Below are positions 3,832 to 48,636 of a DNA stretch of 64,000 nucleotides, one piece after another. The DNA lies in contig CAVYKI010000009.1 in the NCBI GenBank assembly GCA_963769025.1, positions 960,001-1,024,000 of the forward strand. The letters run 5' to 3'. The number at the start of each line of letters is the position of its first letter. The first letter of the stretch is position 1. This DNA is from an uncultured Verrucomicrobiae bacterium. Its GTDB lineage: Bacteria > Verrucomicrobiota > Verrucomicrobiia > Chthoniobacterales > Chthoniobacteraceae. The notes below the pieces were generated by a model. That model saw only the letters and a list, made by a program, of their open reading frames with translations, was not told the origin of the DNA and searched no databases. A program made the translations under genes and the position numbers.

Positions 3832-3872
3832 CCGCCCACGGGAGTCGCATCGCATTTCTGCAGCAAACGACA

Positions 3873-3902
3873 AAGGCCGGATGCCACTCAGCATCCGGCC
3901 TT
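3873..3902. terminator. Intrinsic terminator-like hairpin between convergent genes
   Basis: Perfect 12-bp stem AAGGCCGGATGC-cactca-GCATCCGGCCTT, with a T-rich tail on the minus strand. Confidence 0.7.
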
Positions 3903-3952
3903 CGTGAATTCGTTCATTCCTCCGGCACGTGCGCCGGCGGATGCCAGCTTGC

Positions 3953-26413: not shown

Positions 26414-26545
26414 GTGACGGTCAGGCTAGTGCGCTTCCGGCCCCGTTTGCACGAGGAAACCAAGCGAAGGGATCCTGCCGGCCAAATGCGACTCATCACC
26501 AAGAAAGCTGCGGTAAACCTGAGAGGCACCGCACATACTCCATTG

Positions 26546-27088
26546 ATGCCTGCGCCTGATCCACACGCGAACTTCATTTTCCTGCTCAATGCCGCGCACC
26601 GGCGGCTGCTGGCGTATCTCGTCTCGCTGCTCGGCAGCCGCCACGACGCGGAGGACGTCTTGCAAAAGGCAAGCATGACGATGTGGCGGCGTTTCGAGAC
26701 GTTCGACGCCTCGCGCGTGACGGCGAATGACGATTTTCTCTCGTGGGCCTGCACTGTTGCCTTTTACGAGGCAAAGAATTTCCAGCGCGCGGCGGCGCGT
26801 TCGCGGCTGCATTTCAGCGATGAGCTGCTCGAAATCCTCGCCAGCGAGCGAGCGCCGGATCTTGCGCAGACGGACGCGCGGCACGAGGCGCTGGGGCATT
26901 GTCTCGAAATGCTCGACGATCCGGGGCGCAGACTCGTTGAGGCGGCGTATTTCGAGGAGGGCAGCATCGCCACGCTCGCGGAGCAGCTCGGCCGTGCGCC
27001 GCAGACGCTCTACAACAAGCTGAACATCATTCGCCGCAAACTCGCGGACTGTGTGACGCAGCGCCTTGCCGGAGGAGGCGCGGCGTGA
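26546..27088 (+). CDS. ECF sigma-70 factor (Rhodopirellula/Verrucomicrobium-type)
   Basis: DAEDVLQ, FLSWACTVAFYEAKN, region 4 LAEQLGR..TLYNKLNIIRRKLADC. Confidence 0.9.
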   Translation: MPAPDPHANFIFLLNAAHRRLLAYLVSLLGSRHDAEDVLQKASMTMWRRFETFDASRVTANDDFLSWACTVAFYEAKNFQRAAARSRLHFSDELLEILASERAPDLAQTDARHEALGHCLEMLDDPGRRLVEAAYFEEGSIATLAEQLGRAPQTLYNKLNIIRRKLADCVTQRLAGGGAA

Positions 27089-30679: not shown

Positions 30680-31900
30680 TCACTCGCGCCCTTGGAACTG
30701 CTCCTCCCTCGGGAGCGCGTTCACTTTCCAAGTGGCGGGATAAAAGCGGACGATGCGGCGCGGCCGGAAACCCTCCAGCAGCATGTCGCATTTCACCTGG
30801 ATCTGGACGCCGCTGCTGCCGGGCTCGGCGGGGATTTTTTTGATGTCGAGAATGTTGCCGCCTTTGCGGTCGTTCACGGGATCGTAGGTCATCAGGCTGT
30901 CGCGAGCGACGGCGATGGTGCCTTTCGGCGCTTCCGGATTGTCGGGCTCCTTCGAAAGCGGCCAGCCGATTTTGTCGCTGTTGGTGAGCCTGAGTTCGTC
31001 GAAGAGCTTCTCATCCACGCCGCCGAAGAAAGTGATCGTGACGATCTGCTGTTCGTCGTCCACGGCCTGCACCCAACCGGCGAGACCACGCTCGCGGATG
31101 TGATTACGGTGCCGCTCAAGCTGCTGGGCAGTGGCAAGTGCGCGGCTACGTTCATCTAGCCAGATGTCGGTGATGCGGCCGGGGCCGTAGAGGGTGACCC
31201 ATGTGAAATTGAAGAGGACGGTCTGCCCGGGTTGCAGCGCCTCAAGATCGGCAAAGCCCTCGCCGCGCATCACCCGGGTGCTGGTGAGCAGGTCGAAAAT
31301 CCTCGGCTGTCCGCTTGCCTGGCCTTTGTCGATCAGCGTGGCGGTGAGTTTTTTCTCCGCGAGGTTCACGGAGTCGATTTTCCAGAGGTGCTGCTGGCGC
31401 AAATGAAAGCTGAAGTCGTCCTCGATGCGGAAGCAGCGCCGGAAATCCGACTCGGGCGTCTTGCGCTTGTAGGCAGTATCCGGAAGCGGAGCGTTGTCGT
31501 TCGGATCCTTCAGGTAAAAAAGCCCGTGCAGATGCGTGCCAAGCGGGATGTCCTGCAGCGCTGCGGGCGCTCCGTGGTAATAGATGGATCCGTAGGGCAG
31601 CATCGTGGCATCGAGAGGCAAATCCCAGACGCCGCGTTCCTGGCTGTCGTTGCGATCCACCCGGATCTGGAAACGGCGCTCCAGGTGATCGACCTGCATC
31701 AGTTCACCTGAAATCGCATGCGCCGAGCCTTCCGGCGGGAACTCCCCCTCCACGGGCAGAAACCACTCGGGCACGGTGCTCTTCTCCTTCGGGTTCTTCT
31801 TTGCGGTGGCGGTCACGGGGCCGTCGGCATCCGTGCGGAATTTCGGCGGCTCGGCGTGGAGAATGGCGACGGCGAGGAGGAGTGCGATGAGCGGGCGCAT
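30680..31900 (-). CDS. Conserved hypothetical exported protein
   Basis: Signal peptide MRPLIALLLAVAILHA, about 406 aa open frame, follows the DUF1552 gene on the same strand. Confidence 0.75.
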   Translation of the reverse strand: MRPLIALLLAVAILHAEPPKFRTDADGPVTATAKKNPKEKSTVPEWFLPVEGEFPPEGSAHAISGELMQVDHLERRFQIRVDRNDSQERGVWDLPLDATMLPYGSIYYHGAPAALQDIPLGTHLHGLFYLKDPNDNAPLPDTAYKRKTPESDFRRCFRIEDDFSFHLRQQHLWKIDSVNLAEKKLTATLIDKGQASGQPRIFDLLTSTRVMRGEGFADLEALQPGQTVLFNFTWVTLYGPGRITDIWLDERSRALATAQQLERHRNHIRERGLAGWVQAVDDEQQIVTITFFGGVDEKLFDELRLTNSDKIGWPLSKEPDNPEAPKGTIAVARDSLMTYDPVNDRKGGNILDIKKIPAEPGSSGVQIQVKCDMLLEGFRPRRIVRFYPATWKVNALPREEQFQGRE

Positions 31901-32019
31901 GAAGATGGATGGTAAGAATCGGGCGCTGAGCGATACGACAGAAGGAACAGCGCAGACAGATCCGGCGAACTTTTCCACCATCGTATCGCTGTCTGCAGCT
32001 TCCGTTCTTCTCGCGCAGG

Positions 32020-33383
32020 TCAGGCGACGATCTGCGAGATCGGCGCGACGCTGTCCTGGAACTTGTCCACCTTCACATCCACGCGCTGGAGCATCGTGAG
32101 GAGCAGGTTGCTGACGCGCGCGTTGTCGTCCACGGGCTTCGAGCAGATGCGGTAATGCGTGATCGCGTCGGCGACGTCGTATTTGCCGATCTTCGGGAGG
32201 TTGAAATCGACGTGCGTGCCGTGCTTGTAGCCGAGCGCTTTTCCGCCGGCGAGGATGGTGGGCAGGTTGGCATTGCCGTGGCTGTGGCCGTAGGCCATGC
32301 CGCTGCCCCAGAGCACCTGCGTGGTGTCGAGCAGCGTGCCGTTTTCCTCGCGGTGCGACTTGAGCTGGTCGAGGAAGTAGCTGAGCTGATCGATGAGGAA
32401 GGTGTCCGTCTGCGTGAGGCGGCGGAGCTGCTCGGGGTCGCCATTGTGGTGCGACAGGCCGTGGCGCGTCTGCAAAATGCCGATCTCGGGGATGCCGCTC
32501 GCTGTTGCCTTCGCTGCCGATGCCGCAGGTGATGACGCGCGTGGAATCCGTGCGCAGCGCCATGACCATGAGGTCATAGAAGAGCCGGTAATATTCGCCG
32601 GCCTCGGCCATGCTCGAGCTTGCGCTGGAGGCGCGCGGCCTCGTCGGCGGGCACGAGCGGCTTGGGGACGTTCAGCCATTCATCGGCGCGGCGCGTGCGT
32701 TCCTCCACCTGGCGGACGGCGGTGAAGTATTCGTCGAGCTTCGTGCGATCCTCGCTGCCGAGTTTTTTGTTCACGCGCTTCGCGTCATCGGCCACGAGAT
32801 CGAGGATGCTGCCGCGGCGGCTGAGGCGGCGGCGGATGGTCTCCTTGCTGTCCTTTTCCACGCCGAAGAGCATGTTGAAAATCTGCTGCGTGTTCCGCTC
32901 GGCAGGAATCTGGATGCCGTCCTTCGACCACGCGAGCGAAGTGCCCTCGATGGCCATTTCCAGCGAGGAAAAACGCGTCGCCGCGCCCTGCGCATCCGCG
33001 ATGAGCTGGTCGGCCGAGACCGTGTTGCGGAATGCGCCGCCGTCGCCGGGGACGTTCGCGCCGGTGAGCCAGACCTTTTCGCAGTTGTGATGCTTGCCGA
33101 TCACCATCGGGTGATGCAGTCCGCTGATGGGCGTGATGTCGGCGCGGTGCTTTTCGAGCGACTTCAGCGGCGCGGTGAATTCGTAGTCCGCGCCCGCCTT
33201 TTCGATCTGCCACGTGAGCGTGTTCACGCCGTTCGGAATGTAGAGAAAGACGCTGCGCTTCGGCTTCGATGGCACCGGCAGCACGGCCATGCAGTCGAGG
33301 AGCGGCAGGGCGATGGTGGCTCCGAGGCCGCGCAGCATCTGGCGGCGGCTCATGCGCCAGCGGTTGAGATTGAGGTTGCTCAT
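32020..33383 (-). CDS. DUF1552 (HXXSHH) protein, Tat-like leader (frameshifts near 32612 and 32498)
   Basis: [64 protein letters not shown]. Confidence 0.88.
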
Positions 33384-33413
33384 GGGGTGCTCCTGGTTGG
33401 TGCTGCGGTTGGG

Positions 33414-35866
33414 TTAGCGCTTTTGGAAGAGGTCTGAAAGGACGAATGCTTCGACGATGTCGCGCAGGCGGTAGTCCTTCGCCTTGCCCGCGGCGGCGAT
33501 GGCCTTCAGCTCGTCGCGGTCGCTGAAGGACATGCTGCGGCGCAGGCCGTAGGTCGCGAGCTTCTCGACGAAGGTGTGATTGAACGCGTCGATGTCGGCG
33601 AGGAGCAGCTTCTTGAATTCGTCGGCGTCGCTGTAGTTCGCGGCCGTCGGGGAGTTTGCCGGCAGGATCGACCTTCGGATTCGCACCGGTGCCGTCGGTG
33701 ACCTCCTCGGTGCGCCAGCGGCCGATGGCGTCGTAATTTTCAAACGCGAGCCCAAGCGGATCGATCTTGCGTGACAGGCGGCGCAGGTCGGATCGTGGAT
33801 GTGCGCGTCGAGCTTCATGCGCAGCGTGGCCTTCGGCGCATCGAGCGCGATTCGTCGCGATGGGCTCGACATTCGCCGGCGGCGGCGGCGGCGATTTGCC
33901 GAAGATGGCCTCGGAGACCCACACGCCGCGATGCACCGGCCGGTGCCGCGTGCCGTCGGACGTGAGCGAAAGGATCGACGCCTGCGTGAGCGAGTCCGCC
34001 GCGTTTGCTGTCGGCCGGCAGCGACGACGCGCTGGAAGCCGTCGCGCGGCAGCCCCGCATCCGGCAAGGCCGTAAAACTTCGCGAGCCGCGCGTTCACCA
34101 TGCTCCAGTCCGAGTGCAGGAATTCGCGCAGCGTGAGGCCGCCTTGCAGCACTTCGCGGAAGAACGCCTTCGTCTCGCCGACCATGCTCGCCTCGAGCGT
34201 CTTGTCGTAGTCGGGATAGAGCTTCTTGTCCGGCTGGAACATGCCGACCTTCCGCAGCCGCAGCCACTGGGTGGCAAAGGAGTCCGTGAAGCGCGTGGCG
34301 CGTTCGTCCGCGAGCATCCGCGCGACCTGCCGCGAGAGCTCGGCCTTGTCCCGCAGCTTCCCTTTTTCCGCGAGCGAGAACAGTTCCTCGTCCGGCATCG
34401 TGCTCCACAGCAGATACGAAAGGCGCGAGGCGATCTCCCAGTCGTTGAGTGTGTCGCGGTTCGCGTTCTCGTCGCCTTCGGCGATGAAAAGGAAACTCTT
34501 CGAGCAAAGGATCGCCAGCATCCCAGCCTTCACCGCGTCGCGGAATTTCTCCTTCGCGGCGAGCTCCGCCTTCACGATGCCGACATAGCCGTCCAGTTCC
34601 TCATCCGTGACCGGCCGGCGGAATGCACGGCGCGCGAGCGTGCGCGAGGCAGTCGCGCACCTGCTCCATGTTCCCCTCCTCGCGCGGGAAATACGTCGGC
34701 GCGGCGGCTTTGCTCCTCGTCGGTGATGATCGGCCCGCGCCAGGAGACCGAATCCATGATGAGGAACGGATACCGCGCGCGACCCTGCTCGTCGGTGAGC
34801 TTCATCTGCCAGGGGATGCGCCCGTCCTTGATGCTGATGAACGGCTTGTCTCCATGGCGGCCGGAGCGCGGAAGTATTCGACGGCCCCGGCACCTCGTTA
34901 TACACCTCGATGTTCGGCCGGCCCTTCGGCAGATGCGCGCGGAAAGTGACCGTGATCGGCTGCGTCCTCGGGCGCGATGATGTCCTGCTCGAAGAGCACG
35001 CGATCCAGCTTCGCCTCATACACCTTGAGCCGCGGCGCCCGGCCATTTTCCGGCTTCAGCCCGCTGAGCGTGTAGCTGATCTCGTAGATGCCCGCCTCCG
35101 GCAGCGGGTCCTGCAGATTCGAGTAGCGGAACATGTCCCCCGGCCACATCTCGTAACGCACCTTGTCCAGCAGCCCGAGTTCGCGCAGGCGCTCACGATG
35201 CCGCTCGTTCACCTGGTTTTCCAAAATCGCTCGCTTCGTGCCGCCGAACGGAGGGACGGGCTTCGCCTTTTTGTCCGGCGGATCGGGATACGCCTCTGCG
35301 AGGATCACCTCCGCCGCGCCGAGATACTTTTCGATGTTCGACGGCGAGAGCGTGAGCACCGAGCCGATGCGCTCGAAGCCGTGCCACTCCGGGTCCTCGA
35401 GAAAGGCGCCGGGATCCTTCGCGTCGTAATGAACGCCGATGAGGTCGCTCACCGTGTTCACATATTCATCCCGCGTGAGGCGGTTGTAGGACACACGCCC
35501 GCGCGATGCCATGCGCGCCGACTCGCCTTCCTTCATCCGCGCCGCCAGCCATGCCACCACCTTCGCGCTCTCCTCCGCCGTGGGCTTCACCTTTTCCTTT
35601 TTCGGCGGCATCTCGCCGGAGTTGATGCGCTCCATGATCTCCAGCCACTGCGGCGTATTCTCAAAGCCGACCTTCGGGGAGAGCGTGTCCATCCGGAACT
35701 CGCCCTTTTGCTTCTCCGCGCCGTGGCAGTTCAGGCAGTGCTTTTCAAAGTAAGCCTGCACCGTCGGGTCCAACCCTCCCGGCACCGCCGCGCCTAAATG
35801 GCCAGCCGCGGCGAGCAGCAACGAGACAACAGATAATGTGAGAGCGGGATGACCGGACTTGAGCAT
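33414..35866 (-). CDS. DUF1592/1588/1585/1587/1595 (PSD/PSCyt) cytochrome c protein, with about 10 frameshifts between 33630 and 34970 (sequencing error or pseudogene)
   Basis: CLNCH, EMPP, RLTRDEYVNTV.DL, RRAFRRPV, EIASRLSYLLWSTMPD, PVHRGVWV, PPPPANV, CAACH, KIDPLG.AFENYDAIGRWR. Confidence 0.85.
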
Positions 35867-35978
35867 GGGACAGGTGACAGAATACCCAGACCGCCTTCCC
35901 CTTAGCCAGAATGCTCGGCAGCGACAAACGCACTGGCGGGCCAATTGACTTGGACGCTCGCCCTGCCACGCTCGGCAC

Positions 35979-36761
35979 GTGATGAATCCCCCTGCCCGTC
36001 TCCTCGTCGCGCTGCTTGCCTTTGCCGCCAGCGTCAGTCTTTTCGCCGCCGACCCGGGAACCGCGCCCACTCCCACGCACTCCACTCCGCCCGACGGATT
36101 CGTGTCGCTATTCAACGGCAAGGACCTGGATGGATGGACCGTCCGCCAGCCCGACAATGGCGCATGGAGCGTCGTGGACGGCGTCATCGATTGCGACCCC
36201 AAGGGCGACGCGAAGGGCGACCAAAACCTGTGGACCACGAAGGACTTCGGCGACTTCGATCTGTGGGTGGATTGGCGGATCAAGGAGAGCCCGTTTTTCA
36301 ACCGCAAGGCGCGCATCATTCTTCCCGATGGCACCTACAAAAAGGACGTTTCCGGCAACGTCCTCGCCGTCACCGCGCCGAACACCGACTCGGGAGTCTT
36401 CCTCCGCGGGCAGCACAAATCGCAGGTGAACATCTGGTGCTGGCCTGTCGGCTCGGGCGAGGTGTGGGGTTACCGGACAGACCCGGCCCTTTCCGCAAAG
36501 GTCCGCGCCGGGGTGACTCCGAAGGTGAATGCGGATCGGCCAGTCGGCGAATGGAACACGTTCCATATCGTGATGCAGGGCGACCGCCTCACGGTGACGC
36601 TCAACGACAAACTGGTGATCGACGATGCCGAGTTGCCCGGAGTTCCGCGCAAGGGCCCGCTGGCCCTGCAACTCCACTCCGAACGGAAGGACGGCGAATG
36701 GGGCGCGTCGCTGGTGCAATTTCGGAACATCCGGATCAAGGAGCTGACGGGCGTGAAATAG
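35979..36761 (+). CDS. DUF1080 (3-keto-disaccharide hydrolase-like) exported protein
   Basis: FVSLFNGKDLDGW, DSGVFLR, GEWNTF, LALQLH, FRNIRIKEL. Confidence 0.9.
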   Translation: MMNPPARLLVALLAFAASVSLFAADPGTAPTPTHSTPPDGFVSLFNGKDLDGWTVRQPDNGAWSVVDGVIDCDPKGDAKGDQNLWTTKDFGDFDLWVDWRIKESPFFNRKARIILPDGTYKKDVSGNVLAVTAPNTDSGVFLRGQHKSQVNIWCWPVGSGEVWGYRTDPALSAKVRAGVTPKVNADRPVGEWNTFHIVMQGDRLTVTLNDKLVIDDAELPGVPRKGPLALQLHSERKDGEWGASLVQFRNIRIKELTGVK

Positions 36762-36837: not shown

Positions 36838-37311
36838 TCAAACGGCGTTCTCGGATCGGCTGAAAAGCTCGCGCACCGCCTGCTCGCGGAATGCAAAAAT
36901 CTTAGCGAGCTGCGGCTTGACCAGGAAGGGATGCGCGAAATTGCCGAGCGGGCCGAAAGGCAGCACGTACGTCACCCGGTCGGTGATTTCGACGCGGCCG
37001 CCCGCGAGTTCCTTGAAGTGGTGCTCGTGGTGCCAGATGCGGTAAGGACCGATGCGCTGCTCATCGACGAAGAACTGTCGCGGCTCGACATGCGTGATTT
37101 CCGTCACCCAACGGGCGGGGATGCCAAGCAGCGGGCGCACCCGGTACTCGATCATCATGCCCGGATAGATGCGCTCCGGGAGCGAGGTGAGGATCTTGAA
37201 GTCCAACTCGGGCGGAGTGATTTTTTCGAGATTGCGTGGATCGGAAAAGAAATCCCATGCGCGTTCGAGGCTGGCTTCGATGATTTGGGAGGCTTCGAGG
37301 ACGTGAACCAT
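36838..37311 (-). CDS. SRPBCC family ligand-binding protein
   Basis: WDFFSDPRNL.KITPP, WVTEITHV, FVDEQR.GPY..WHHEH, IFAFR. Confidence 0.88.
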   Translation of the reverse strand: MVHVLEASQIIEASLERAWDFFSDPRNLEKITPPELDFKILTSLPERIYPGMMIEYRVRPLLGIPARWVTEITHVEPRQFFVDEQRIGPYRIWHHEHHFKELAGGRVEITDRVTYVLPFGPLGNFAHPFLVKPQLAKIFAFREQAVRELFSRSENAV

Positions 37312-37350: not shown

Positions 37351-38412
37351 TCAGGCGTCCGAACGCGCCGGTGGCGCCGGTTTGGATGGTCCCGCATGAC
37401 TGGCGAGCAATTGTTCGATCTGCGTATTCAGCGCGGGCGCGCCGTCGAGTTCATTCCTAAACTTCGACGGAATCCCATCGGTTCCGGCTGCGGCCCCGAG
37501 CAGCGCGCCTACGACCGCGCCACGGTGGCAGTTGTCGCCGCCGACGTTGGTGTTCGCGATGACTCCCGCCTCGAAATCATCGGCGTACTTCCACGCGAGG
37601 TAGAGCGAGGCTGGGAATGCATCGGCGATGTAGCACGCGGGGCTGACACATTGACCGATGACGACCTCGTCCGGCTCGTGCGACCACTGCGCCGCGGTGC
37701 GTGCCGGGAACCAGTCGCTGCCATGCGCGACGATCGCTTCACGCAATCCGGAGCCGGAGACGACGGCTCCGACGATCCGCACCATCGCGTCCGCCGCGGC
37801 GAGCACCTCCGGTACGCGGTGCGTTAGCGCGACGTGTTCGCGCACGGCATCCCGGCTGGCGGCGAGGTCGCCGCCGAAGAAGGCGCAGAGCACACCGACA
37901 TGCGCGAGGCCGCCAATGTGGATGTCGCTGCCTGCGCATTTGCGGGGAGGGGTGCCACGGGCGTACGCGGTGAAGAATTTCCGATGGCACTCCTCGACGT
38001 AGGTATCCCGGTGCCGGCCAGGGCTGAGCATGAAGTCAATATACCGATCGAGATAATCGTCGGCGTCGTAACCACCGCGCGCGATAAGCGATCCGATGAG
38101 CACTTTCGCGAGCTGGAGGTTGAGGGTGTTTTCGCCGGCGCGGAGGAACTGGTGGTAGTGGATGCCACGCCGTCCCCAATATTGCGCCTGCTCGTGCAGG
38201 ATGTCGCCGCGCGCATTGAGCGGCGTGTATTCGGAACGCCAGAGGATGCTGTCGGGATGGGGATTTCGCGGCGCAACGTAGTCGCGCACGAGGCCGTAGT
38301 CGCGACGCAGCGCGGCGCGGTCGTAATACCAGTGAACGGGCATCGCGAGCGCGTCGCCGATAAATGGTCCCCAGGCGAGACCTTGGAGCTTATCGTGAAT
38401 GGAAGCGGTCAT
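37351..38412 (-). CDS. ADP-ribosylglycohydrolase family protein
   Basis: GDALAMPVHWYY, ALTH, NTNVGGDNCHRGAVVGALLGA. Confidence 0.87.
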   Translation of the reverse strand: MTASIHDKLQGLAWGPFIGDALAMPVHWYYDRAALRRDYGLVRDYVAPRNPHPDSILWRSEYTPLNARGDILHEQAQYWGRRGIHYHQFLRAGENTLNLQLAKVLIGSLIARGGYDADDYLDRYIDFMLSPGRHRDTYVEECHRKFFTAYARGTPPRKCAGSDIHIGGLAHVGVLCAFFGGDLAASRDAVREHVALTHRVPEVLAAADAMVRIVGAVVSGSGLREAIVAHGSDWFPARTAAQWSHEPDEVVIGQCVSPACYIADAFPASLYLAWKYADDFEAGVIANTNVGGDNCHRGAVVGALLGAAAGTDGIPSKFRNELDGAPALNTQIEQLLASHAGPSKPAPPARSDA

Positions 38413-38436: not shown

Positions 38437-39294
38437 TCATGGGGACGCTGCGAAATCAGCCGGAAGGCCGGCCGGTTCCCAAGCATCAAGTTCCTTTTCC
38501 ACATCGGCGAGTTTCCTGCGCGCTTTTTCGTTCGCGTATTTTCCGAGCACGAGTCGCAGCGGCGGGGAATCGGATTCGACGGCGGCCATGATCGCTTCCG
38601 CTGCCTTCCCCGGAACCCCCGGCTGCCTGCCTTCCATCGTTTCGAGGAAGCGCAGGAATTTTCCGCTCGTGCGATCGTAATCGGCGATGTGGCTGCCCGC
38701 GCGCTCGAGCGAACGCGCGATGAAGCCGGTGCGAAACGGCCCCGGCTGCACGATCGTCACTTTGATCCCAAGCGGCTTGAGTTCCGCGGCGAGTGATTCC
38801 GACACCCCTTCGAGCGCACACTTGGTCGCGCCGTAGATCGAAAAACCTGGATAGTTCGCAATGGCCGCCGCGGCGGAGATGTTCACGATGTGGCCGCTGC
38901 GCTGCGCACGCAGGATCGGAAGCGCCGCCCGGACGACCTCCAGCGCGCCGAAGAAGTTCGTGTTGAAACTGCGCGCGATCTGCTCCCCGCCGAGTTCCTC
39001 GAATGCGCCCACGAGCCCGTAGCCCGCGTTGTTCACGATCACATTGAGCCGGCCAAATGCCTCCGCACTCCGTGCGACCACATCCCTCACTTGAGCGGCG
39101 TCAGTGACATCGAGGGCAAGCACCCGGCAAGTCTCGGGATGACGCGCGGCAAGTTCGTCGAGGGTGGCCGGTTCACGCGCCGTCGCGACCACTCTGTGCC
39201 CGCGTGCGAGTACGTGCGCAGCGAGCGAGAGTCCGAGCCCGCTGGAGCAGCCGGTGATCAGCCAGACTAGGGAGGGTGTTGTTGAATCGGGCAT
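38437..39294 (-). CDS. SDR family oxidoreductase
   Basis: WLITGCSSGLG, VNNAGYG, YGATK, PGPFRT. Confidence 0.9.
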   Translation of the reverse strand: MPDSTTPSLVWLITGCSSGLGLSLAAHVLARGHRVVATAREPATLDELAARHPETCRVLALDVTDAAQVRDVVARSAEAFGRLNVIVNNAGYGLVGAFEELGGEQIARSFNTNFFGALEVVRAALPILRAQRSGHIVNISAAAAIANYPGFSIYGATKCALEGVSESLAAELKPLGIKVTIVQPGPFRTGFIARSLERAGSHIADYDRTSGKFLRFLETMEGRQPGVPGKAAEAIMAAVESDSPPLRLVLGKYANEKARRKLADVEKELDAWEPAGLPADFAASP

Positions 39295-39543
39295 GTTGCC
39301 TCGAACCTTACGCCCGGCCTTGCCGGATGGACGTGACAAAGCGCGAGCGTTCATCTGCGCATGCGGCCTCAACGGACTTCGTGCCGCCGCAAACCCACGG
39401 GATTGCGGACCCCTTCGGCGGACGCCACGGTTCGCGCGAGCATCGCGTAGCGCCGGGAAGAAGCACCGCCCCCCCGGGCGGTGGACGGCATTATTCGCGA
39501 TTTTGGCCTGCCACTTGAGCCCGAGGTTTCATACGCTTCTCCG

Positions 39544-39894
39544 ATGCACGACTTGGCGATTTCCCTGCAAGCTTTCGTAGCCGCCTCGATCTTTTTCGTT
39601 TGGGTCGTGCGCTACGACAACATCATCGCGGAGTTCAAACAGTATCGCCTGCCGGACTGGCTCCGCGATTTGGTCGGGATTCTCAAGCTCGCCCTGTCTC
39701 TGCTGCTGCTGATCGGAATCGAGCGCCCGCGCTTCGCCATCGTGGGCGGGCTGGGCATCGCTGTCCTGATGGCGTGCGCCTTCGTCGTGCATCTGCGGGT
39801 GAAGAACCCGCCGTTCAAGATGCTCCCCTGTCTCACGCTGCTCGTCCTTTCCGCCACGATCGCATTCATCAACTACCGGCTCGTGAACGCGTAA
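39544..39894 (+). CDS. DoxX-like small membrane protein
   Basis: Four hydrophobic segments, EFKQYRLPDW...VGILK, HLRVKNP..K.LP. Confidence 0.78.
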   Translation: MHDLAISLQAFVAASIFFVWVVRYDNIIAEFKQYRLPDWLRDLVGILKLALSLLLLIGIERPRFAIVGGLGIAVLMACAFVVHLRVKNPPFKMLPCLTLLVLSATIAFINYRLVNA

Positions 39895-39904
39895 GTTCCG
39901 GAGC

Positions 39905-40675
39905 ATGGGTTCCAGCGAAGCACCAGCGCGGGTTCCCGATGATGCGCAGCGGCTCGCGGCGCGGGCTCGGCCAACGGGGCGACCGGTGATGTATCAGCAA
40001 TGGCGCGACCTGCTCTTTCTCCACTGGGAATATCCAGCCGCTGCGATTCAGGCGACGCTGCCGGAGGGCCTGTTTGTGGATACGTTCGGTGGAAAGGCGT
40101 ATCTCGGCATCGTCCCGTTCTTCATGCGCAACATCCGGCCGCGCTTTCTGCCTGCGGTGCCGGGCATCTCGAATTTCATGGAGGTGAACCTGCGCACCTA
40201 TGTGCATGATCGATCCGGTGTCCCCGGTGTGTGGTTCTATTCGCTCGATGCGAACCGATGGCTCGCGGTGAAAATTGCGCGGAGGTTTTTTCATCTGCCC
40301 TACGAGCACGCGAGGATGCGGGCGAATCGCGCACCCGACGGCCGCATCCGCTACGAATCGCTGCGCACCGGCGAGCGGGCGAACGGCGCGAGTTGCCTTT
40401 TTGAATACGCTGCCGGAGCGGAGCTTCTGCCGCCGTCGCCCGGCTCGCCGGAGTTTTTTCTCGTCGAGCGCTACCGGCTCTATTCCCGCGCGCCCTGCGG
40501 GCTGCGGCGCGGCGCAGTTTCTCATCAGCCGTATCCGCTTTGCCGCGCGGATGTGTCGGCTTGGGACGACCACTTGCTGACGCTCGACGGCTTCGCCCCG
40601 GCTGGCCGCCCGCCGGATCACATCGTCATGTCGCGCGGGGTGGACGTGACGATTTTTCCGCTGGAGCGGGTGTGA
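39905..40675 (+). CDS. DUF2071 (YqjF) family protein
   Basis: MYQQWRDLLFLHW, EVNLRTYV, GVWFYSLDA, LPY, FLVERY.LY. Confidence 0.9.
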   Translation: MGSSEAPARVPDDAQRLAARARPTGRPVMYQQWRDLLFLHWEYPAAAIQATLPEGLFVDTFGGKAYLGIVPFFMRNIRPRFLPAVPGISNFMEVNLRTYVHDRSGVPGVWFYSLDANRWLAVKIARRFFHLPYEHARMRANRAPDGRIRYESLRTGERANGASCLFEYAAGAELLPPSPGSPEFFLVERYRLYSRAPCGLRRGAVSHQPYPLCRADVSAWDDHLLTLDGFAPAGRPPDHIVMSRGVDVTIFPLERV

Positions 40676-40756
40676 AACCGCTCTCTCGCCGATGTCTTCC
40701 TGCGACCTTCCGGTTTCTGTTGTCGCGAAGTCCGGATTCCATCATTCTCGGCGGGC

Positions 40757-41336
40757 ATGGAACAGGAACCCGATCCACAGCTCGATGCGGAGATCGCGCT
40801 CTTGCGTCGGGTCGCGCAGGGTGACCGCCGGGGTTTCGAGGAACTTTACGATCGCTTTTCCGGCGTCCTTTTTTCCACCGCGCATCGCGTGCTGAACAAC
40901 CAGGAGGCCGCCGAGGATGTGCTGCAGGATGTGTTCATCCAGATCTGGGAAAAGGCGCCGCTATACGACCCGTCGCGCGGAAAGCCGATGACGTGGGCGA
41001 TCACTCTCACCCGGAACAAGGCGATCGACCGCCTGCGCTCCACGCAGCGGCGCGGCCGGTTGCAGGAGGAGCTGATGCAGGAAACGCAAACTTCCGAGCA
41101 ATTCGATGATCGGAGTTCCTTCGATGCGGCCTCAGCGGGCGACACGAACAAGCTGGTCCACGAGGCGATGCAGAAGCTCTCGCCCGATCAACGCGAGGCG
41201 ATCGAACTCGCCTTTTTTTCCTCTCTCACGCAGATGGAAATTTCCGAGCGGCTCAAGCGTGCCGCTCGGCACTGTGAAGGCACGCATCCGCCGCGGCATG
41301 ATGCGGCTGCGGGATCTGCTGGGTCCGCGATTGTAG
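40757..41336 (+). CDS. ECF sigma-70 factor, SigK-like (frameshift near 41258)
   Basis: GDRRGFEELYDR, AEDVLQDVFIQIW, RNKAIDRLR, QREAIELAFF. Continues in a shifted frame as PLGTVKARIRRGM. Confidence 0.9.
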
Positions 41337-41345
41337 CCGCCCGGA

Positions 41346-41920
41346 TTACGCCGCGATGCGGTCCGTCAGTTCACGTTCGCGGGCGACGAGCCAGAGCGGC
41401 TGGCCCTCGCCGTTGAGAATCGGCGTGATGGCGACCTCGACCCAGTAAGGTGTGCCGTTCTTGTGGTAGTTGAGAATCGTCTCCTTGCACGGCTGGCACT
41501 CGTGCACCGCGCTCCGCATGCGCGCCGCGACCTCCCGGTCGGTCCTGGCGCCTTGCAGGATCGGGCCGAGATTTTTTCCACGCAACTCGTCGAGAGAATA
41601 TCCGCACATCTCGGTGAAGGCGGGATTGACCCATTGCACGAGGCGATCCGGGCCGCACACCACGAGCGCTTCGGACGCCACGTGCTGCGGGCGCTGGCGA
41701 TCAGGCCAGCGATGCGAGCCTTGAGCCCCGGCGAAGGCGATGGGTCTGCGGCGCGGCGCGTGGAGAGCGTCAGCGCCGCACCCACCTCCGACATCCCGGC
41801 CGCGAAATCGCGGAGTTCATGGTGAAATTCGAGGAGGAGTTCAAACTGCTCGCGCTCCTGCGGAGTCATGGCTCCGGAGGAGAAGAGTGCGGCTTGGTCC
41901 TGGAGGAATTCGTTGAGCAT
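41346..41920 (-). CDS. Anti-sigma-like N-terminal domain fused to a LOV-like PAS domain (frameshift near 41695)
   Basis: N-terminus LQDQAALFSSGAMTPQEREQFE...PSPGLKARI resembles RskA-type anti-sigma domains. C-terminal PAS WVNPAFTEMCGYSLDELRGKNLGPILQG.RTD...NYHKNGTPYWV..AITP. Confidence 0.8.
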
Positions 41921-41962
41921 CGGATGCGGGGATCGGGTGGAGAAGGTTAAGGATGGAAGCGC

Positions 41963-41989
41963 TACGTTCCATCGCCTGCTTTGGATACA
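41963..41989 (-). promoter_or_regulatory. Candidate ECF promoter TGTATCC-N16-CGTA upstream of the anti-sigma/PAS gene
   Basis: ECF-like -35 and -10 spacing, overlapped by the inverted repeat GATGGAA-N8-TTCCATC (41952-41973). Confidence 0.4.
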
Positions 41990-42058: not shown

Positions 42059-43440
42059 ATGAAACGCGCCCGAAAGCTGAGGAATCTCATCCTCGTCCTC
42101 GGAGATCAACTGGACGAGCGCTCGGCGGCATTCGATGGCTTCGACCCCCGCATGGACGCCATCTGGATGGCGGAGGTCGCGCACGAGTCCGAGAAGGTCT
42201 GGGTGGCAAAACCGCGCATCGCCATTTTCCTCGCGGCGATGCGCCACTTTCGCGATGCCCTGCTCGAGCGCGGCTGGCGGGTCTTCTACCGCGCGCTCAC
42301 GGCGAAATCCGCGGAGTGGAGCGGACTGAGCGGCACGGGATTGCCCGGCGAGACATTCGCCGCGCAACTCGCGTGGGCCATCGCGCAGACGCATCCGGAA
42401 AGGCTCATCATCGTCGAACCCGGCGAGTGGGGCGTGCGCGACGAAATCGCCGCCGCCACGCGCGAAGCGAAAGTGCCGCTGGAGATTCGCACAGACCGCC
42501 ATTTTCTCTGCTCCGCCGAGGAGTTCGCCGCGCACGCGAAAGGCCGGAAGCAACTGCGCATGGAATATTTCTACCGCGAGATGCGCGTGAAGACCGGCGT
42601 GCTCATGGACGGCGACAAGCCCGCGGGCGGCGAGTGGAATTTCGACCACGACAATCGCGAATCCTTCGGCAAAGACGGCCCCGGCTTCCTGCCAGCGCCG
42701 CGCCGATTTCTGCCGGACGAGACGACACGCGAAGTGATGGCGATGGTCTCCGCGCGCTTCGCGAGCATCCGGGGGAGTTGGAAAAGTTCGACTGGCCCGT
42801 GACCGCCGCGCAGGCGCGCGAGGCGCTCGATGATTTCATCGCGCACCGGCTCCCGGATTTCGGCCGGTGGGAGGATGCGATGTGGTCGGGCGAGCCGTGG
42901 CTCTACCATTCGCGCCTCAGCGCCGCGCTTAATCTCAAGCTGCTCGATCCCCGCGAAGTGCTCACCGCCGCCGAGCGCGCATGGCGCGAAAAGCGCGCGC
43001 CGATCGCGAGCGTCGAGGGTTTCATCCGGCAAATCCTCGGCTGGCGGGAATACGTGCGCGGCATCTACTGGCGGCTCATGCCCGGCTACGTCGGGCGCAA
43101 CGCGCTCGGCGCCGACGAGCCGCTGCCGGCATTCTACTGGACGGGCGAGACGGAGATGAACTGCCTGCGCCACGCGCTTCGCCAGACGCTCGACCACGGC
43201 TACGCGCATCACATCCAGCGGCTCATGGTCACCGGACTCTTCTCGCTGCTGGTCGGAGTCCGCCCGCGGGAGATCGAGGAGTGGTATCTGGCCGTGTACG
43301 TCGATGCCGTGGATTGGGTGGAGCTGCCGAACACTCTCGGCATGTCGCAATACGCAGACGGCGGCGTGATGGCCTCGAAGCCCTACATCGCGACCGGCAA
43401 ATACATCCAGCGCATGTCGAACTACTGCGCCGGCTGCCGC
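42059..43440 (+). CDS. Cryptochrome/photolyase, Fe-S (6-4) photolyase (PhrB/CryB, FeS-BCP) type, C-terminally truncated (frameshift near 42772)
   Basis: [83 protein letters not shown]. Homology stops there. Confidence 0.85.
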
Positions 43441-43849
43441 GAAGCGAAAACCATCGTCGGCGTTGCTTCCGGTGCCGGAGCAGTTCAACACCCTCGTGGC
43501 CGCCGTCAAGGCAGCCGGCCTCGTGGACACCCTCAATGGCGCCGGACCTTTCACCGTCTTCGCGCCGACTGACGAAGCGTTCGCGAAGCTCCCCAAGGGC
43601 ACGGTGGAAGACCTGCTCAAGCCCGAGAACAAGGCCAAGCTGGCATCGATCCTCACTTACCACGTGCTCGCCGGAAAAGTCATGGCCGCGGATGTGAAAA
43701 CCATGGGCGCCAAAACCGTGAACGGCAAGGAAGCGTCCATCAAGGTGGGTGGAGGCAAAGTGACCATCGGCGCCGCGAATGTCGTGAAGACGGACATCGC
43801 CGCAAGCAACGGCGTTATCCACGTCATCGACACCGTCCTCATCCCGTAA
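43441..43849 (+). CDS. Fasciclin (FAS1) domain, lacking its own start and signal peptide (indel near 43480)
   Basis: [45 protein letters not shown]...ILTYHV...[11 protein letters not shown]. Confidence 0.85.
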
Positions 43850-44354: not shown

Positions 44355-44690
44355 ATGAACATCGGACTCTCTGACAGGACCCGGAACACCGTCATCAAAA
44401 CGCTGCAACCGCTGCTTGCCGGTCACGCAGTGCTCGCGATGCAAACGCGCGCCGCTCACTGGCGGCTCACGGACCGGCTCTTCAAGCCCGTGCACGAATG
44501 GCTCGGCGAGCAATACGAAGAATTCTGCCGAAGCGTGGCTGAAGTTGCTCCTCGCTCACCGCGAAGCATTGATCTGCCAGCTCCGCAGCGCGGCAGATGC
44601 GGTCGGCTCCGCAGGGGACAGCGGCACGCAGGACTTTCTCATCGGCCTCATGGAGGACCATGAAAAGACCGCGTGAATGCTGTGTTCCAG
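44355..44690 (+). pseudogene. dps: Dps (DNA starvation/stationary-phase protection ferritin) remnant
   Basis: MNIGLS..LL..H W..FKPVHEWLGEQYEE, central DxxAER helix missing, then GDSGTQDFLIGLMEDHEKTA*MLCS (TGA where W of 'HEKTAWML' is expected). Confidence 0.78.
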
Positions 44691-46135: not shown

Positions 46136-46296
46136 ACGAAAGGCACACGCAATATTCATCGATCGCGGTTCAAGAATGGAACGGGTAATGAATCGGTACG
46201 GCGTAACCCTTCCCGGCCGTGTCGCGCTCCGGATCGCTGTCAGTGCTTCAAATAGTCTTCTCGCAGACGGGTGATCAGACCTTGTACATCCGCCTC

Positions 46297-48636
46297 ATGA
46301 CCCATCGCCCTCCCTCCGGCTTGGCAGCGCTCAGTGCACTTGCGCTGCTCGCCGTTGACGTGCGTGGCGCCGATCCGAAGCCTTACAGCGGTGCGGGCTG
46401 CGCGGCGGCGGATGAGTTCTTCAACGACCATGTCTGGCCGAAGGTCGCCGCGGAGTCGTGCCTGAAATGCCACAAGGCCGGCGGCGATGCCGAGGACAGC
46501 AAACTGGTGCTGCGCGATCCGAAGCGCGAGCCGGATGCGGCGCAGGCGGAGGTGATGCGGCACAATCGCGGGGCGTTCGCGCGCATGGCGACAACGATGG
46601 AAGGCGGCCAGTCGCGGCTGCTGCTGAAAGCCGCAGGCAAGCTCAAACACGAGGGCGAGGAGGTGCTGAAGCCGGACTCGGCGGGTTACGGTGTGCTCGC
46701 AAGTTTTGTCCGCCGCGTAAATGCGCCGCCGGCCGCAACGCTCGCGAAAGAGACGGCGCCGGACAGGAATGCTCCGCCATTTTTCGACGGCATCGTGATG
46801 ATGGACGACCGCCGGCTGCTCCGCCGCGTCACGCTTTCGCTCGCGGGCCGGCTGCCGACGGATGCGGAGATCGCAGACGTGAGCAGGAATGGCCTGAAGG
46901 CGCTGCCGGCGATCCTCGATGCCGTGATGAAGGAGGACGCCTTCTACGACCGGCTGCGCGAGGGGTTCAACGACATCTTCCTCACGCTCGGCGCCGACGG
47001 AAATGCGGACCAGACGTTCCTTTCCTACGATCATTTCCCGCAGAGGCACTGGTATCAGAAGTGGGAGTTCAAAGACATCCCGGACGAGAAGGACCGCAAG
47101 CAGGCCGGCTACAAGATGGCGCGTGAATACCGCGAGGCGCTCCACGGCGAACCGCTGAGACTCATCGAGCAAATCGTGCGCGAACGGAAGCCTTTCACCG
47201 AGATCGTCACGGCGGACTACATCATGGTCTCACCCTACACGGCGCGGGGCTACGGCATGTTCGACGAGCTCCAGGCGCAGTTCAAAAACGCGGACGATCC
47301 CTTTGAATACATCCCGGTGAAGCTCCACGCGCTCAAGGGACGCGCGAAGCCGCAGGATCAGGAGTCGCCGACCGGCTTTTATCCGCATGCGGGACTGCTG
47401 AGCACCTTCCAGTGGCTGTGCCGCTACCCGACGACGGAGACGAACCGCAACCGGCTGCGCGCACGGATGTACTACCAGCACTTCCTCGGCGTCGATGTGC
47501 TCGAGCTCGCGGCTCGCGTGTCGGACGCCGCCGCGGCCACGGCTAAATTCAAGGTGCCGACGATGGAGGCCAGCGAGTGCGTGGTGTGCCATAAGACGCT
47601 CGATCCCGTCGCGGGGCTTTTTCAGGACTACTGGAAGTTCGCCGACCAGGGCGTGTACGGGCGGCGGAAGGACGGCTGGTTCACAGACATGTTCGGCGCG
47701 GGATTCGAGGGCGAGAATCTGCCGGCGGAGGAACGCTGGCGATCGCTGCAATGGCTCGGAGAACGCACGGCCAAGGATCCGCGCTTCGCCGTCGCGATGA
47801 CCGAGCACGCCTACTACATCCTGACCGGTCGCAAGGTGCTGCTGCCGCCGAAGGATCTCGATGACCCGCTCGACGCCGCGAAGCGCCGTGCGTACCAGGC
47901 CCAGCGAAAGCAGACCGAGGCCATCGCCGCGCGCTTCGCGCAGACGGGGTTCGACTTCAAGAGCGTGATCAAGGACTGGGCCGCGTCCGACTTTTACCGC
48001 GCCGACGGACTCGCGACCGTGGCGGCCAAGCCCGAGCGTCGCGCGGAACTCGACGACATCGGCGTCGTGCGAATGCTCGCGCCCGAGCAAGTCGAGCGGA
48101 AGCTGAACGCCATTTTCGGCAAAGGATGGGGACGCCTGAGACATGGTGACGGCGGCATGGCCATGCTCTATGGCGGCATTGACTCGAAGGAAGTCACCGA
48201 TCGCGCCACCGACCCGAGCGGCGCGATGGGCGCGATCCAGCGCATCCTGTCCAACGACGTGGCGTGCAAGCAGACCGCCCTCGACTTCAGCCGCCCGCCT
48301 GCTGAGCGGATTCTTTTCCCAAACATCGAGCCGGACGTGCTGCCCGGCGATTCGCCCGAGGCGGACGCGAAAATCCGCAACGCGATCGTGCATCTGCACA
48401 AGCGCGTGCTCGGCCGCTACGACACACCGGACTCGCCCGAGGTCGCGCGCACGTTTCAGCTTTTCTCCGGAATCGTCAGCGACGCCGCCGAGCACAGCAA
48501 GACGCTCGACAAACAGGAGAGCTACTCCTGCCGCCAGGGCCTCCTCGCTCCCGTGCCCGATCCGAAATACGCCGTCCGCGCATGGCGCGGTGTCGTGACC
48601 TACCTCCTCCGCCAGCACGAGTTCCTCTACGAGTGA
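46297..48636 (+). CDS. Exported di-heme protein, DUF1588/DUF1549-related
   Basis: Signal peptide, CLKCH, LLRRVTLSLAGRLPT, PHAGLLS, NRNRLRAR, CVVCH..LDP. Confidence 0.8.
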   Translation: MTHRPPSGLAALSALALLAVDVRGADPKPYSGAGCAAADEFFNDHVWPKVAAESCLKCHKAGGDAEDSKLVLRDPKREPDAAQAEVMRHNRGAFARMATTMEGGQSRLLLKAAGKLKHEGEEVLKPDSAGYGVLASFVRRVNAPPAATLAKETAPDRNAPPFFDGIVMMDDRRLLRRVTLSLAGRLPTDAEIADVSRNGLKALPAILDAVMKEDAFYDRLREGFNDIFLTLGADGNADQTFLSYDHFPQRHWYQKWEFKDIPDEKDRKQAGYKMAREYREALHGEPLRLIEQIVRERKPFTEIVTADYIMVSPYTARGYGMFDELQAQFKNADDPFEYIPVKLHALKGRAKPQDQESPTGFYPHAGLLSTFQWLCRYPTTETNRNRLRARMYYQHFLGVDVLELAARVSDAAAATAKFKVPTMEASECVVCHKTLDPVAGLFQDYWKFADQGVYGRRKDGWFTDMFGAGFEGENLPAEERWRSLQWLGERTAKDPRFAVAMTEHAYYILTGRKVLLPPKDLDDPLDAAKRRAYQAQRKQTEAIAARFAQTGFDFKSVIKDWAASDFYRADGLATVAAKPERRAELDDIGVVRMLAPEQVERKLNAIFGKGWGRLRHGDGGMAMLYGGIDSKEVTDRATDPSGAMGAIQRILSNDVACKQTALDFSRPPAERILFPNIEPDVLPGDSPEADAKIRNAIVHLHKRVLGRYDTPDSPEVARTFQLFSGIVSDAAEHSKTLDKQESYSCRQGLLAPVPDPKYAVRAWRGVVTYLLRQHEFLYE

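Follow-up and report, generated by a model that had tools for sequence, protein, structure and literature searches.

A SigK-like ECF sigma factor and a soluble anti-sigma protein with a LOV-lineage PAS domain: a probable cognate pair in Verrucomicrobiota

Does a soluble protein that joins an anti-sigma domain to a LOV-like PAS domain control the sigma factor of the extracytoplasmic function (ECF) type encoded tail to tail with it, and which signal would it read? This question is raised by a locus in a stretch of 64,000 nucleotides (nt) of contig CAVYKI010000009.1 (assembly GCA_963769025.1) from an uncultured Verrucomicrobiae bacterium. The whole stretch is termed the window, and coordinates given without a handle are positions in it. 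An earlier note, made from the sequence alone, had proposed a light- or redox-sensing switch at this place. Taken as a whole and together with the mechanism proposed below, the locus probably encodes a cognate pair, consisting of a SigK-like ECF sigma factor of ~192 amino acids (aa; 40757..41336, + strand) and a soluble protein of 191 aa that is anti-sigma factor and sensor in one (41920..41346, - strand), here called ASD-PAS for its anti-sigma domain (ASD) and its PAS domain. The ASD-PAS proteins form a real and conserved, Verrucomicrobiota-wide family, a variant of the ECF sigma/anti-sigma theme with a pairing that seems to be undescribed.

The anti-sigma gene and its N-terminal domain

In the assembly the anti-sigma gene is broken by a missing base at 41692/41693, which separates an N half (41693..41920, -) from a C half (41346..41692, -). 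One minus-strand frame opens with the ATG at 41920, reads MLNEFLQDQAAL...KARIAGLIAS (its start is also rendered MLNEFLQDQAALFSSGAMTPQEREQFELLLEFHHELRDFAAGMSEVGAAL) and then turns into a senseless run-on. The PAS domain lies in another minus-strand frame, as an open reading frame (ORF) of 111 aa at 41681..41346, and the two frames abut near 41695. The proposal of the earlier note, that one restored base yields a single ORF of ~190 aa, agreed with the homologs. Using the N half alone as query and retaining longer proteins only, 48 intact matches were found, all of them with the PAS domain and 43 exactly 191 aa long. Both halves were also contiguous in a single frame in the loci of 16 relatives, and a metagenome contig of ~90% identity spanning 41560-41930 carries one additional base behind 41692, the exact break point.

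Such breaks are frequent in this genome. When 44 long ORFs of relatives with a match of at least 60% identity were compared to it, 14 were found split across frames, with 29 changes, and the ortholog of gyrase/topoisomerase IV subunit A, 92-100% identical over most pieces, is cut into 7 pieces. Further examples were found at C9:714933-716914, C9:713289-714676, C4:125050-126048 and C6:177101-178458. Since intact homologs exist and the assembly is full of frame breaks, the break in the anti-sigma gene was read as an assembly error, which most likely also explains the other frame breaks in the window. Sigma, anti-sigma and photolyase-related genes all have frame breaks within 3 kb, and one could take them for true pseudogenes in a decaying stress island. 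No run containing more than 0.10 of the sampled words was found among the sequencing runs searched for this strain (best share 0.10); four runs examined over the locus gave contigs of relatives only, and the RNA contigs over the sigma gene came from ~86%-identical relatives and are uninformative on this strain. However, the breaks occur genome-wide and include highly conserved genes, and the coding sequences at the locus are otherwise intact and conserved, single indels aside. We therefore consider decay of the three genes very improbable. Given the genome-wide single-base frame changes, any pseudogene or split-gene call within this window is suspect. The photolyase-related gene is split over two frames when compared to its orthologs in the related loci L020 and L024, and for the fasciclin gene all covering contigs differ from the assembly by an indel at 43479, where the relatives have one base fewer. 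A Dps/ferritin-like gene (44355-44676, +) is also split over two frames (ORFs 44355-44663 and 44416-44676), probably by an assembly indel.

The N-terminus had been described as following the RskA/ChrR-type anti-sigma pattern, with the HxxxCxxC zinc motif lacking, and profile, fold and helix evidence all pointed to a class I anti-sigma domain. A profile built from 20 N halves gave 5 matches in the PDB, of which the top two were RslA (3.1e-4) and RskA (0.3, collinear over residues 6-72), and the NCBIfam model 'antisigma' (NF052375) matched residues 10-81 at 7.4e-5. AlphaFold2 (AF2) models of the full-length protein (pLDDT 87.4) and of the N half (82.6) contain helices at residues 4-15, 20-32, 34-53/54 and 64/66-75, which corresponds to the class I pattern of a three-helix bundle, a linker and a fourth helix. 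When the N-half model was compared by fold to 48,161 chains with VIA-align, RsiW (Z 6.7), RslA (6.5), MucA (6.2), RskA (5.9) and RseA (5.3) were all found in the top 8. Adjacency to an ECF sigma gene and a predicted complex with its product, both treated below, go along with these likenesses.

Residue counts throughout refer to 51 close and 21 diverse ASD-PAS members (72 aligned rows, with two sequences common to both alignments). At the positions aligned to the His and the two Cys of the RslA zinc motif, V/L, H33 and L36 were found, with no Cys in either set; H33 is present in 46/51 close and 8/21 diverse members. Lacking HxxxCxxC, the domain falls outside the zinc-binding (ZAS) subclass. No transmembrane segment was detected, the Kyte-Doolittle 19-residue maxima being 0.88, 0.98 and 1.81 with the last peak in the amphipathic helix 3, which fits the soluble protein expected in the earlier note. 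The protein is no RskA, as it has no transmembrane segment and ends in a PAS domain instead of RskA_C (PF10099), and it is no member of the ChrR family, as PAS takes the place of the ChrR cupin (PF12973). In relatives the same N domain heads anti-sigma factors encoded directly after paralogous ECF sigma genes, in co-directional operons. It is joined to a ChrR cupin at L028:4837-3645 (-, cupin 2.9e-15) and L030:3815-2602 (-, cupin 3.6e-17), and a related N domain is joined to RskA_C at L031:5216-6795 (+, 6e-18). As PAS, ChrR cupin and RskA_C are all found on this N domain within the lineage, one anti-sigma domain has become joined to all three sensor modules.

Some results speak against the assignment. 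Helical bundles attain Z values such as those of the fold search (5-7) by chance as well. Pfam, the comparison named in the earlier note, identified PAS_9 on the C half (1.5e-14) and gave no match on the 77-aa N half, nor did any Pfam family match the N half of another ASD-PAS member; Pfam RskA_N matched 3 of 20 sequences and 0 of 17 ASD-PAS members. The NCBIfam matches for anti-sigma and for SigK both stayed under their curated cutoffs. Weighing both sides, the N half is quite probably a zinc-free class I anti-sigma domain, and its anti-sigma role is well supported by computation.

The sigma factor, its probable partner and their putative promoters

The sigma gene starts at 40757 and encodes Pfam Sigma70_r2 (1.9e-20) and r4. 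Its conserved end, ...PLGTVKARIRRGMMRLRDLLGPRL, is found in another frame than the start, with one extra base near 41255-41258, a frame break that is absent from the earlier note. Once this second break is taken into account, the stop codons of the two genes (TAG at 41334-41336 for sigma, 41346-41348 for anti-sigma) are separated by a spacer of 9 nt (41337..41345), exactly the distance given before. Intact orthologs of the sigma factor are 74-88% identical. Compared to solved structures, the best match was SigK (4nqw_A, 2.5e-39), followed by R. sphaeroides SigE (3.3e-33). The best NCBIfam model was also a SigK one (subfamily NF007228, 4.4e-50), with 170 bits at a cutoff of 226, so that the SigK/ECF19 threshold is not reached. 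Judged by sequence likeness, the protein is SigK-like, as proposed earlier, and not a demonstrated SigK ortholog.

No co-directional anti-sigma gene accompanies the sigma gene, in line with the earlier description; its neighbor is the convergent ASD-PAS gene. The same arrangement was observed in relatives. Of 16 relatives' loci, 14 have a convergent sigma ortholog following the anti-sigma gene, and the same holds for 47 of the 73 named loci at species level whose downstream DNA was sufficient. We are aware that these two sets overlap, as both come from the same species representatives. In four loci a conserved gene for a secreted TPR/RMD1-like protein of ~250-300 aa is inserted between the two (L018:3832-4722, L021:531-1367, L023:4795-5601, L026:6660-7415), with the convergent linkage persisting. 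The complex of a syntenic sigma factor with the 80-residue ASD was predicted with ipSAE values of 0.80, 0.83 and 0.81 (median 0.81) versus 0.23 for the best control. Of 157 solved complexes 116 reach the mark applied, whereas of 215 mismatched pairs 2 do so. Across the three runs at least 91% of the contacts agreed, at a partner pLDDT of at least 84, and the models place mostly helices 3 and 4 of the anti-sigma domain against sigma regions 2 (residues 20-94) and 4 (130-192). The sigma binding that the earlier note had put up for prediction is thus favored by the model with the convergent-type sigma. The pass may reflect likeness to known complexes: because SigK/RskA and SigE/ChrR have already been solved as complexes, the model is taken as likeness rather than as proof of binding.

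Could the convergent arrangement be incidental, with ASD-PAS controlling another ECF sigma factor, e.g., that of a ChrR-type paralog with a similar promoter, or several of them? A convergent sigma gene is missing in 26 of the 73 loci. No sigma match was found within 3 kb in the 23 loci L088-L103 and L105-L111, whose ASD-PAS proteins are 35-59% identical to the member P0001 and which are labelled Verrucomicrobiaceae, Prosthecobacter, Opitutaceae and also Chthoniobacterales. At least 700 nt of downstream DNA are available for 18 of them, and all 18 belong to the 26. Pfam applied to 39 ORFs from 10 loci without convergent sigma gene revealed no sigma factor. These orphans of up to 59% identity in many cases still have an ECF-type promoter, the operons of the ChrR-type paralogs carry a very similar -35 element (GCATCC), and several ASD-PAS copies per genome occur (three places each in G011 and G024, two in the source genome G000). 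These observations weigh against a strict pairing. On the other side stand the tail-to-tail linkage in the majority of loci, its persistence across the inserted TPR gene, the paralogous copy on contig C3 of the same genome, which keeps its own convergent sigma gene, and the complex model, which passes with the neighboring sigma factor, the sole one modelled. An incidental arrangement is in our opinion improbable, and the convergent sigma factor and ASD-PAS were regarded as cognate in what follows. The window contains another sigma gene, with a likely start at 26546, which has a co-directional FecR-like partner of its own. This independent sigma/anti-sigma pair (26393-28617, +) comprises a Rhodopirellula/Verrucomicrobium-type ECF sigma factor (TIGR02989, 6.6e-45) and a gene of 510 aa (27085-28617), the start of which is overlapped by the sigma gene and which is FecR-like anti-sigma by gene order and sequence, with no family match.

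The two convergent genes differ in their upstream regions. In front of the sigma gene lies a putative sigma-70-like promoter (40713..40748, +), composed of GTTTCTGTTGTCG (40713-40725), a 17-nt spacer and CATTCT (40743-40748). The housekeeping-like consensus GTTTCNNTTGTCG-N17-CAT(T/G)(C/T)T was shared at the same distance from the ATG by 13 of 13 upstream regions (the window and 12 relatives' loci). As a regulon motif this box was rejected, since its 5 matches in the genome are at chance level. The anti-sigma gene is preceded by a putative ECF-type promoter, ATCC-N16-CGTA (41963..41986, -), 42 nt before the ATG. This motif was found 35-54 nt before the ATG in a first set of relatives, for 15 of 15 and 16 of 16 genes in two counts, and before 60 of 78 anti-sigma genes of a second one, with ~0.004 matches per locus estimated from base composition; strict matches in 231 kb numbered 21 versus ~5 expected. 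The ChrR-type paralog operons carry GCATCC-N16-CG[AC]A. Conservation of the ECF-type promoter was seen before the anti-sigma gene, not before the sigma gene. It would be read by the neighboring ECF sigma factor, and a sigma gene under a housekeeping-type promoter combined with an anti-sigma gene under an ECF-type one would amount to constitutive sigma, inducible anti-sigma and hence negative feedback.

The wider promoter search did not extend this picture. The genome-wide scan for ATCC-N16-CGTA gave 102 matches versus ~115 expected and, because it shows no enrichment, no regulon was defined. Within the window, no such motif was found before the photolyase, fasciclin, DoxX and SDR genes; an ATCC...CGTA near the SDR gene has a 12-nt instead of a 16-nt spacer. 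Both results weigh against the proposed account of the pair. Among the best-scoring genome matches beyond the two anti-sigma genes is a site at G000:C12:236394 (+; TGAATCC...ACGTAAG), before an apparent katG gene as read from its N-terminal sequence, which may be chance among ~100 chance matches in the genome. Excerpts of PMC7509140 describe an influence of SigK on katG expression in mycobacteria. The motif was also seen at L022:2786 and 470 (-) and at L023:3322 and 933 (-), before an SDR gene and a gene for an FAD-binding oxidoreductase, the latter adjoining a type III polyketide-synthase-like gene; SDR and oxidoreductase are possible regulon members.

The PAS domain and the candidate signal

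The C half, which ends in ...DRIAA, is a LOV-lineage PAS domain that fails the LOV residue rules. In the PDB profile search the best 60 of 159 matches (E<=0.01) were all LOV domains, led by CagFbFP (8.8e-27) and followed by PpSB1, phototropins, EL222, LOV kinases, YtvA and aureochrome. Foldseek superimposed the domain on CagFbFP with a TM score of 0.90, an rmsd of 1.5 A and 37% identity, and NCBIfam matched it to the YtvA family (8.6e-18), which makes LOV domains the nearest relatives of this PAS fold. The motifs read out earlier (GKNLGPILQG..TD, NYHKNG..YWV and the final Glu) were all found and describe a LOV-clade PAS domain without adduct Cys. The CQPC motif, which the earlier note had singled out as a pair, did not hold up: its first Cys occurs in 7/51 close members, its second (C145) in 51/51 close and 15/21 diverse ones. 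Because the first Cys is not conserved, CQPC was rejected as a redox pair.

According to excerpts of PMC9098866, at least 8 of nine YtvA residues (G59, N61, C62, R63, F64, L65, Q66, N94, N104) constitute the LOV signature; the positions were mapped via the CagFbFP alignment, not via YtvA itself. Of these nine, 5 (G, N, L, Q and N94) are retained in the window copy and in P0001. The adduct Cys (YtvA Cys62) is found in 0/51 close and 0/21 diverse members, its site being occupied by Leu (49) or Pro (2) in the close and by Leu (12), Pro (8) or Ala (1) in the diverse set. The N61 equivalent is kept in 24/51 and 1/21, R63 is replaced by Pro in 49/51 close members and varies in the diverse set, F64 is replaced by Ile, Leu or Met, and N104 by Val in 50/51 and 21/21. 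One additional residue, Gly119, is inserted in the flavin-phosphate loop before the R63 equivalent, and the active-site Gln (YtvA Gln123) is replaced by Glu in 51/51 and 21/21 members. Charged residues at this site are largely absent among ~350 natural Gln-less LOV proteins, as far as excerpts of PMC9098866 tell. Kept were the equivalents of Gln66, Asn94 and one or two Arg. The pocket is under strong constraint, with C106, G119, Q123, N151, V161 and E182 invariant in 21/21 members at 37-68% identity. Cys106 (motif MCGY; ~41603-41605, -) is invariant in the close set as well (51/51). This site is occupied by Ser or Thr in LOV domains and in P0073, P0079 and P0094, the closest of the multi-PAS relatives shown. 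Outside the family, the closest relatives are multi-PAS proteins that share the G.KPG..LQG ... IAIE.D signature. With 1231 representatives at E<=1e-30, this subtype is met very often in multi-sensor proteins; the PAS domain is therefore part of a Cys-less sister group of LOV that is very large. Since the LOV residue rules fail and charged residues at the Gln site are so rare in natural LOV proteins lacking the Gln, flavin binding by ASD-PAS is doubtful.

The following mechanism is proposed for the pair. As a class I anti-sigma domain free of zinc, the first ~76 residues would lodge between regions 2 and 4 of the sigma factor and keep it off RNA polymerase. Helix 4 of this domain would run straight into the LOV-derived PAS domain, in the place of the helix that flanks LOV domains on the N-terminal side. 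The PAS pocket (Gln123, Asn151, Val161, Glu182 and Cys106) would read a cytoplasmic signal, which would alter the presentation of helix 4 and thereby free the sigma factor; alternatively, the signal might expose the [V/I/L]AA tail to proteolysis. As signal, light or a light-linked redox or photo-oxidative cue would be most likely. In this scheme we infer physical binding, the sigma factor that reads the promoter, the cofactor, the signal and the mechanism of release.

How far does the evidence on the PAS domain reach towards direct light sensing? LOV-like proteins that naturally lack the Cys, respond to flavin reduction and keep the other conserved LOV residues are documented in excerpts of PMC4682037. 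Flavin-based sensing of light by ASD-PAS itself is rather unlikely. Unlikely, too, is its most specific form, a one-protein photoreceptor anti-sigma in which the Cys-less, Glu-bearing LOV-sister PAS domain binds flavin and photoreduction or the flavin redox state releases the SigK-like sigma factor. If true, an ECF anti-sigma factor with direct input of light would be established for the first time, light would be suggested as the 'obscure' stimulus of SigK-type systems with fasciclin and photolyase neighbors, and the G.KPG..LQG ... IAIE.D subtype, with more than 1000 representative clusters, would become a new class of flavin light or redox sensors.

As a possible alternative, which we hold with reserve, the same pair might operate with a PAS domain that is no photoreceptor and binds no flavin. 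The domain would then read another small ligand or a thiol chemistry via Cys106 (with Cys145 in most members), or would just serve dimerisation and stability, with turnover via the [V/I/L]AA tail as an ssrA/RseA-like ClpX signal. The replacement of four of the nine signature residues and of the active-site Gln, the inserted loop residue, the invariant Cys106 and the frequency of the PAS subtype in multi-sensor proteins all agree with it. So does the AA end in 48/51 close homologs; C-terminal VAA/AAA tails of anti-sigma fragments bind ClpX according to excerpts of a preprint (bioRxiv 10.1101/491043). However, the best 60 solved relatives listed all are flavin-binding LOV domains, Gln66, Asn94 and the Arg equivalents were retained, and the single best match, 6ywi, is a LOV Gln-to-Glu variant that still crystallised as a flavin-based fluorescent protein. 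The AA tail is present in 7 and absent in 12 of 19 diverse members, which also counts against release by proteolysis of the tail in the scheme proposed for the pair. The neighborhoods, finally, are rich in light-response genes. As a family-wide degron the AA tail was rejected, since it is confined to the close subfamily.

Genomic context, distribution and known systems

The photolyase-related gene (DPRP, PF04244, 1e-68; 42059..43572, +) lies divergent from the anti-sigma gene across 138 nt, as the earlier note had described, and is followed by a fasciclin-domain gene (2.4e-41; 43463..43849, +) with an uncertain 5' end. The linkage of homologs to ECF and photolyase genes expected there stood in its first part, with the convergent sigma genes counted above. 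Photolyase adjacency, however, is a minority feature, which weighs against this linkage: CPD or DPRP photolyase genes were found near the pair in the window and in L013, L020 and L024, and a DPRP match in 11 of 80 loci. Of 80 related loci, 16 have a fasciclin gene at a distance of up to 3 kb. A fatty-acid desaturase gene together with a lipocalin gene, with or without amine oxidase or DUF1365, was found in L018, L022, L023, L025 and L026, and an AhpC gene in L018. Upstream of the sigma gene, Pfam identified SRPBCC (36841-37311, -), ADP-ribosylglycohydrolase (37354-38412, -), SDR (38437-39372, -), DoxX-like (39481-39894, +) and DUF2071 (39905-40675, +) genes, of which SDR, ADP-ribosylglycohydrolase and SRPBCC recur within few kb of the pair in relatives. 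The paralogous locus of the same genome (L017 = G000:C3:1348102-1360323) contains a MerR-HTH plus B12-binding gene of CarH/LitR-like architecture (3758-5014, +) directly before the paralog's sigma gene (from 5055, +) on the same strand, and the ASD-PAS gene at 6222-5653 (-). An amine-oxidase-family gene is located just before the MerR+B12 gene. The fasciclin genes that are part of the SigK regulon in M. tuberculosis are light-induced in M. kansasii, and the stimulus of SigK-RskA is called 'obscure' (excerpts of PMC9861118). The neighborhood fits a light or photo-oxidative theme without showing what the PAS domain senses. Genes unrelated to the ASD-PAS pair were found at 30683-36334 (-) and 46219-48633 (+). 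They encode planctomycete-type DUF1552/DUF1592/DUF1588/DUF1587 and PSCyt cytochrome domains, which are common in Planctomycetota and Verrucomicrobiota.

All 80 named loci belong to Verrucomicrobiota (one under an odd species label), and the family is conserved across at least 3 verrucomicrobial orders. Three clusters were found in the ESM Atlas, with protein lengths of 187-191 aa and 116, 76 and 313 members; they are commonest in Verrucomicrobiota and named just PAS or 'blue-light-activated'. A whole-protein profile was also run against a library of 1.84 billion sequences, where 19 of the top 150 matches were single-stretch full-length members; because multi-PAS proteins swamp the matches, the family size is not readable from this search. 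A second PAS_9 protein of similar size is encoded at L105:2227-2925 (+), directly upstream of the distant ASD-PAS member at L105:3001-3585, possibly as a tandem duplicate.

ECF sigma/anti-sigma pairs are a main signalling route of bacteria, and soluble anti-sigma factors with defined sensors are few (the ChrR cupin, zinc and thiol types). ASD-PAS would add a compact design of 191 aa, in which a LOV-lineage PAS domain is wired directly onto the sigma-binding helix. It offers a testable candidate for the sensing of light or photo-oxidative stress in non-phototrophic Verrucomicrobiota of soil and freshwater and a lead on the stimulus of SigK-type regulons, draws attention to a pocket with invariant Glu, Val and Cys in a PAS subtype that is very common and, if light-responsive, would represent a very small natural module for light-controlled transcription. 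Full-text literature searches and excerpts of the ECF reclassification and ASDI papers contained no LOV- or PAS-fused ECF anti-sigma factor, with the supplements of PMC4682037 and PMC9098866, which possibly list members, lying outside this scope; this agrees with the earlier note, which knew of no characterised example. The 2021 ECF census lists soluble anti-sigma factors in only 10 groups and regards other variants as probable (PMC7826278, in excerpt).

Compared to SigK-RskA of M. tuberculosis (ECF19, PDB 4NQW), the window sigma factor has SigK as its best solved match, the N domain of ASD-PAS is collinear with the cytosolic domain of RskA, and both lack the zinc motif. A fasciclin gene lies near the pair, as mpt70/mpt83 do within the SigK regulon (excerpts of PMC9861118). 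In contrast, RskA is membrane-bound with an extracytoplasmic RskA_C domain and is encoded co-directionally after sigK, whereas ASD-PAS has a cytoplasmic LOV-like PAS domain and a convergent gene with its own ECF-type promoter. The window sigma factor also remains under the NCBIfam SigK cutoff. Because no invariant Cys was found in the sigma alignment, there is no sign of a disulfide sensor of the SigK type.

RpoE-ChrR of R. sphaeroides (ECF11, PDB 2Q1Z/2Z2S) resembles the pair in having a soluble anti-sigma factor with N-terminal ASD and C-terminal sensor, R. sphaeroides SigE is the second-best solved match of the window sigma factor, and true ASD+ChrR-cupin paralogs headed by the same N domain occur in relatives. 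ChrR differs by its zinc-binding ASD, its cupin sensor and its co-transcription with rpoE, compared to an ASD without zinc motif, a PAS domain in place of the cupin and a convergent gene order in ASD-PAS. The gene types next to the pair (photolyase, SDR, amine oxidase, DUF1365, desaturase) resemble the singlet-oxygen regulon of ChrR.

With the LOV photoreceptors ASD-PAS shares the fold and the nearest sequence relationship. Among them, YtvA acts on SigB via the stressosome and not as an anti-sigma factor. ASD-PAS replaces the equivalents of Arg, Phe, the second Asn and the active-site Gln and has an insertion, whereas the Cys-less LOV-like proteins keep all other strictly conserved LOV residues (compared were short LOV proteins, YtvA and Cys-less BAT-LOV; Yee et al., 2015, excerpts of PMC4682037).

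In the light control by LitR/CarH-LitS, an ECF sigma factor is likewise tied to a light sensor, and the paralogous pair of L017 directly follows a MerR+B12 gene. The LitR/CarH sensor of Streptomyces and Myxococcus is a B12-dependent repressor that acts on transcription. In ASD-PAS, by contrast, the anti-sigma protein itself contains the candidate sensor.

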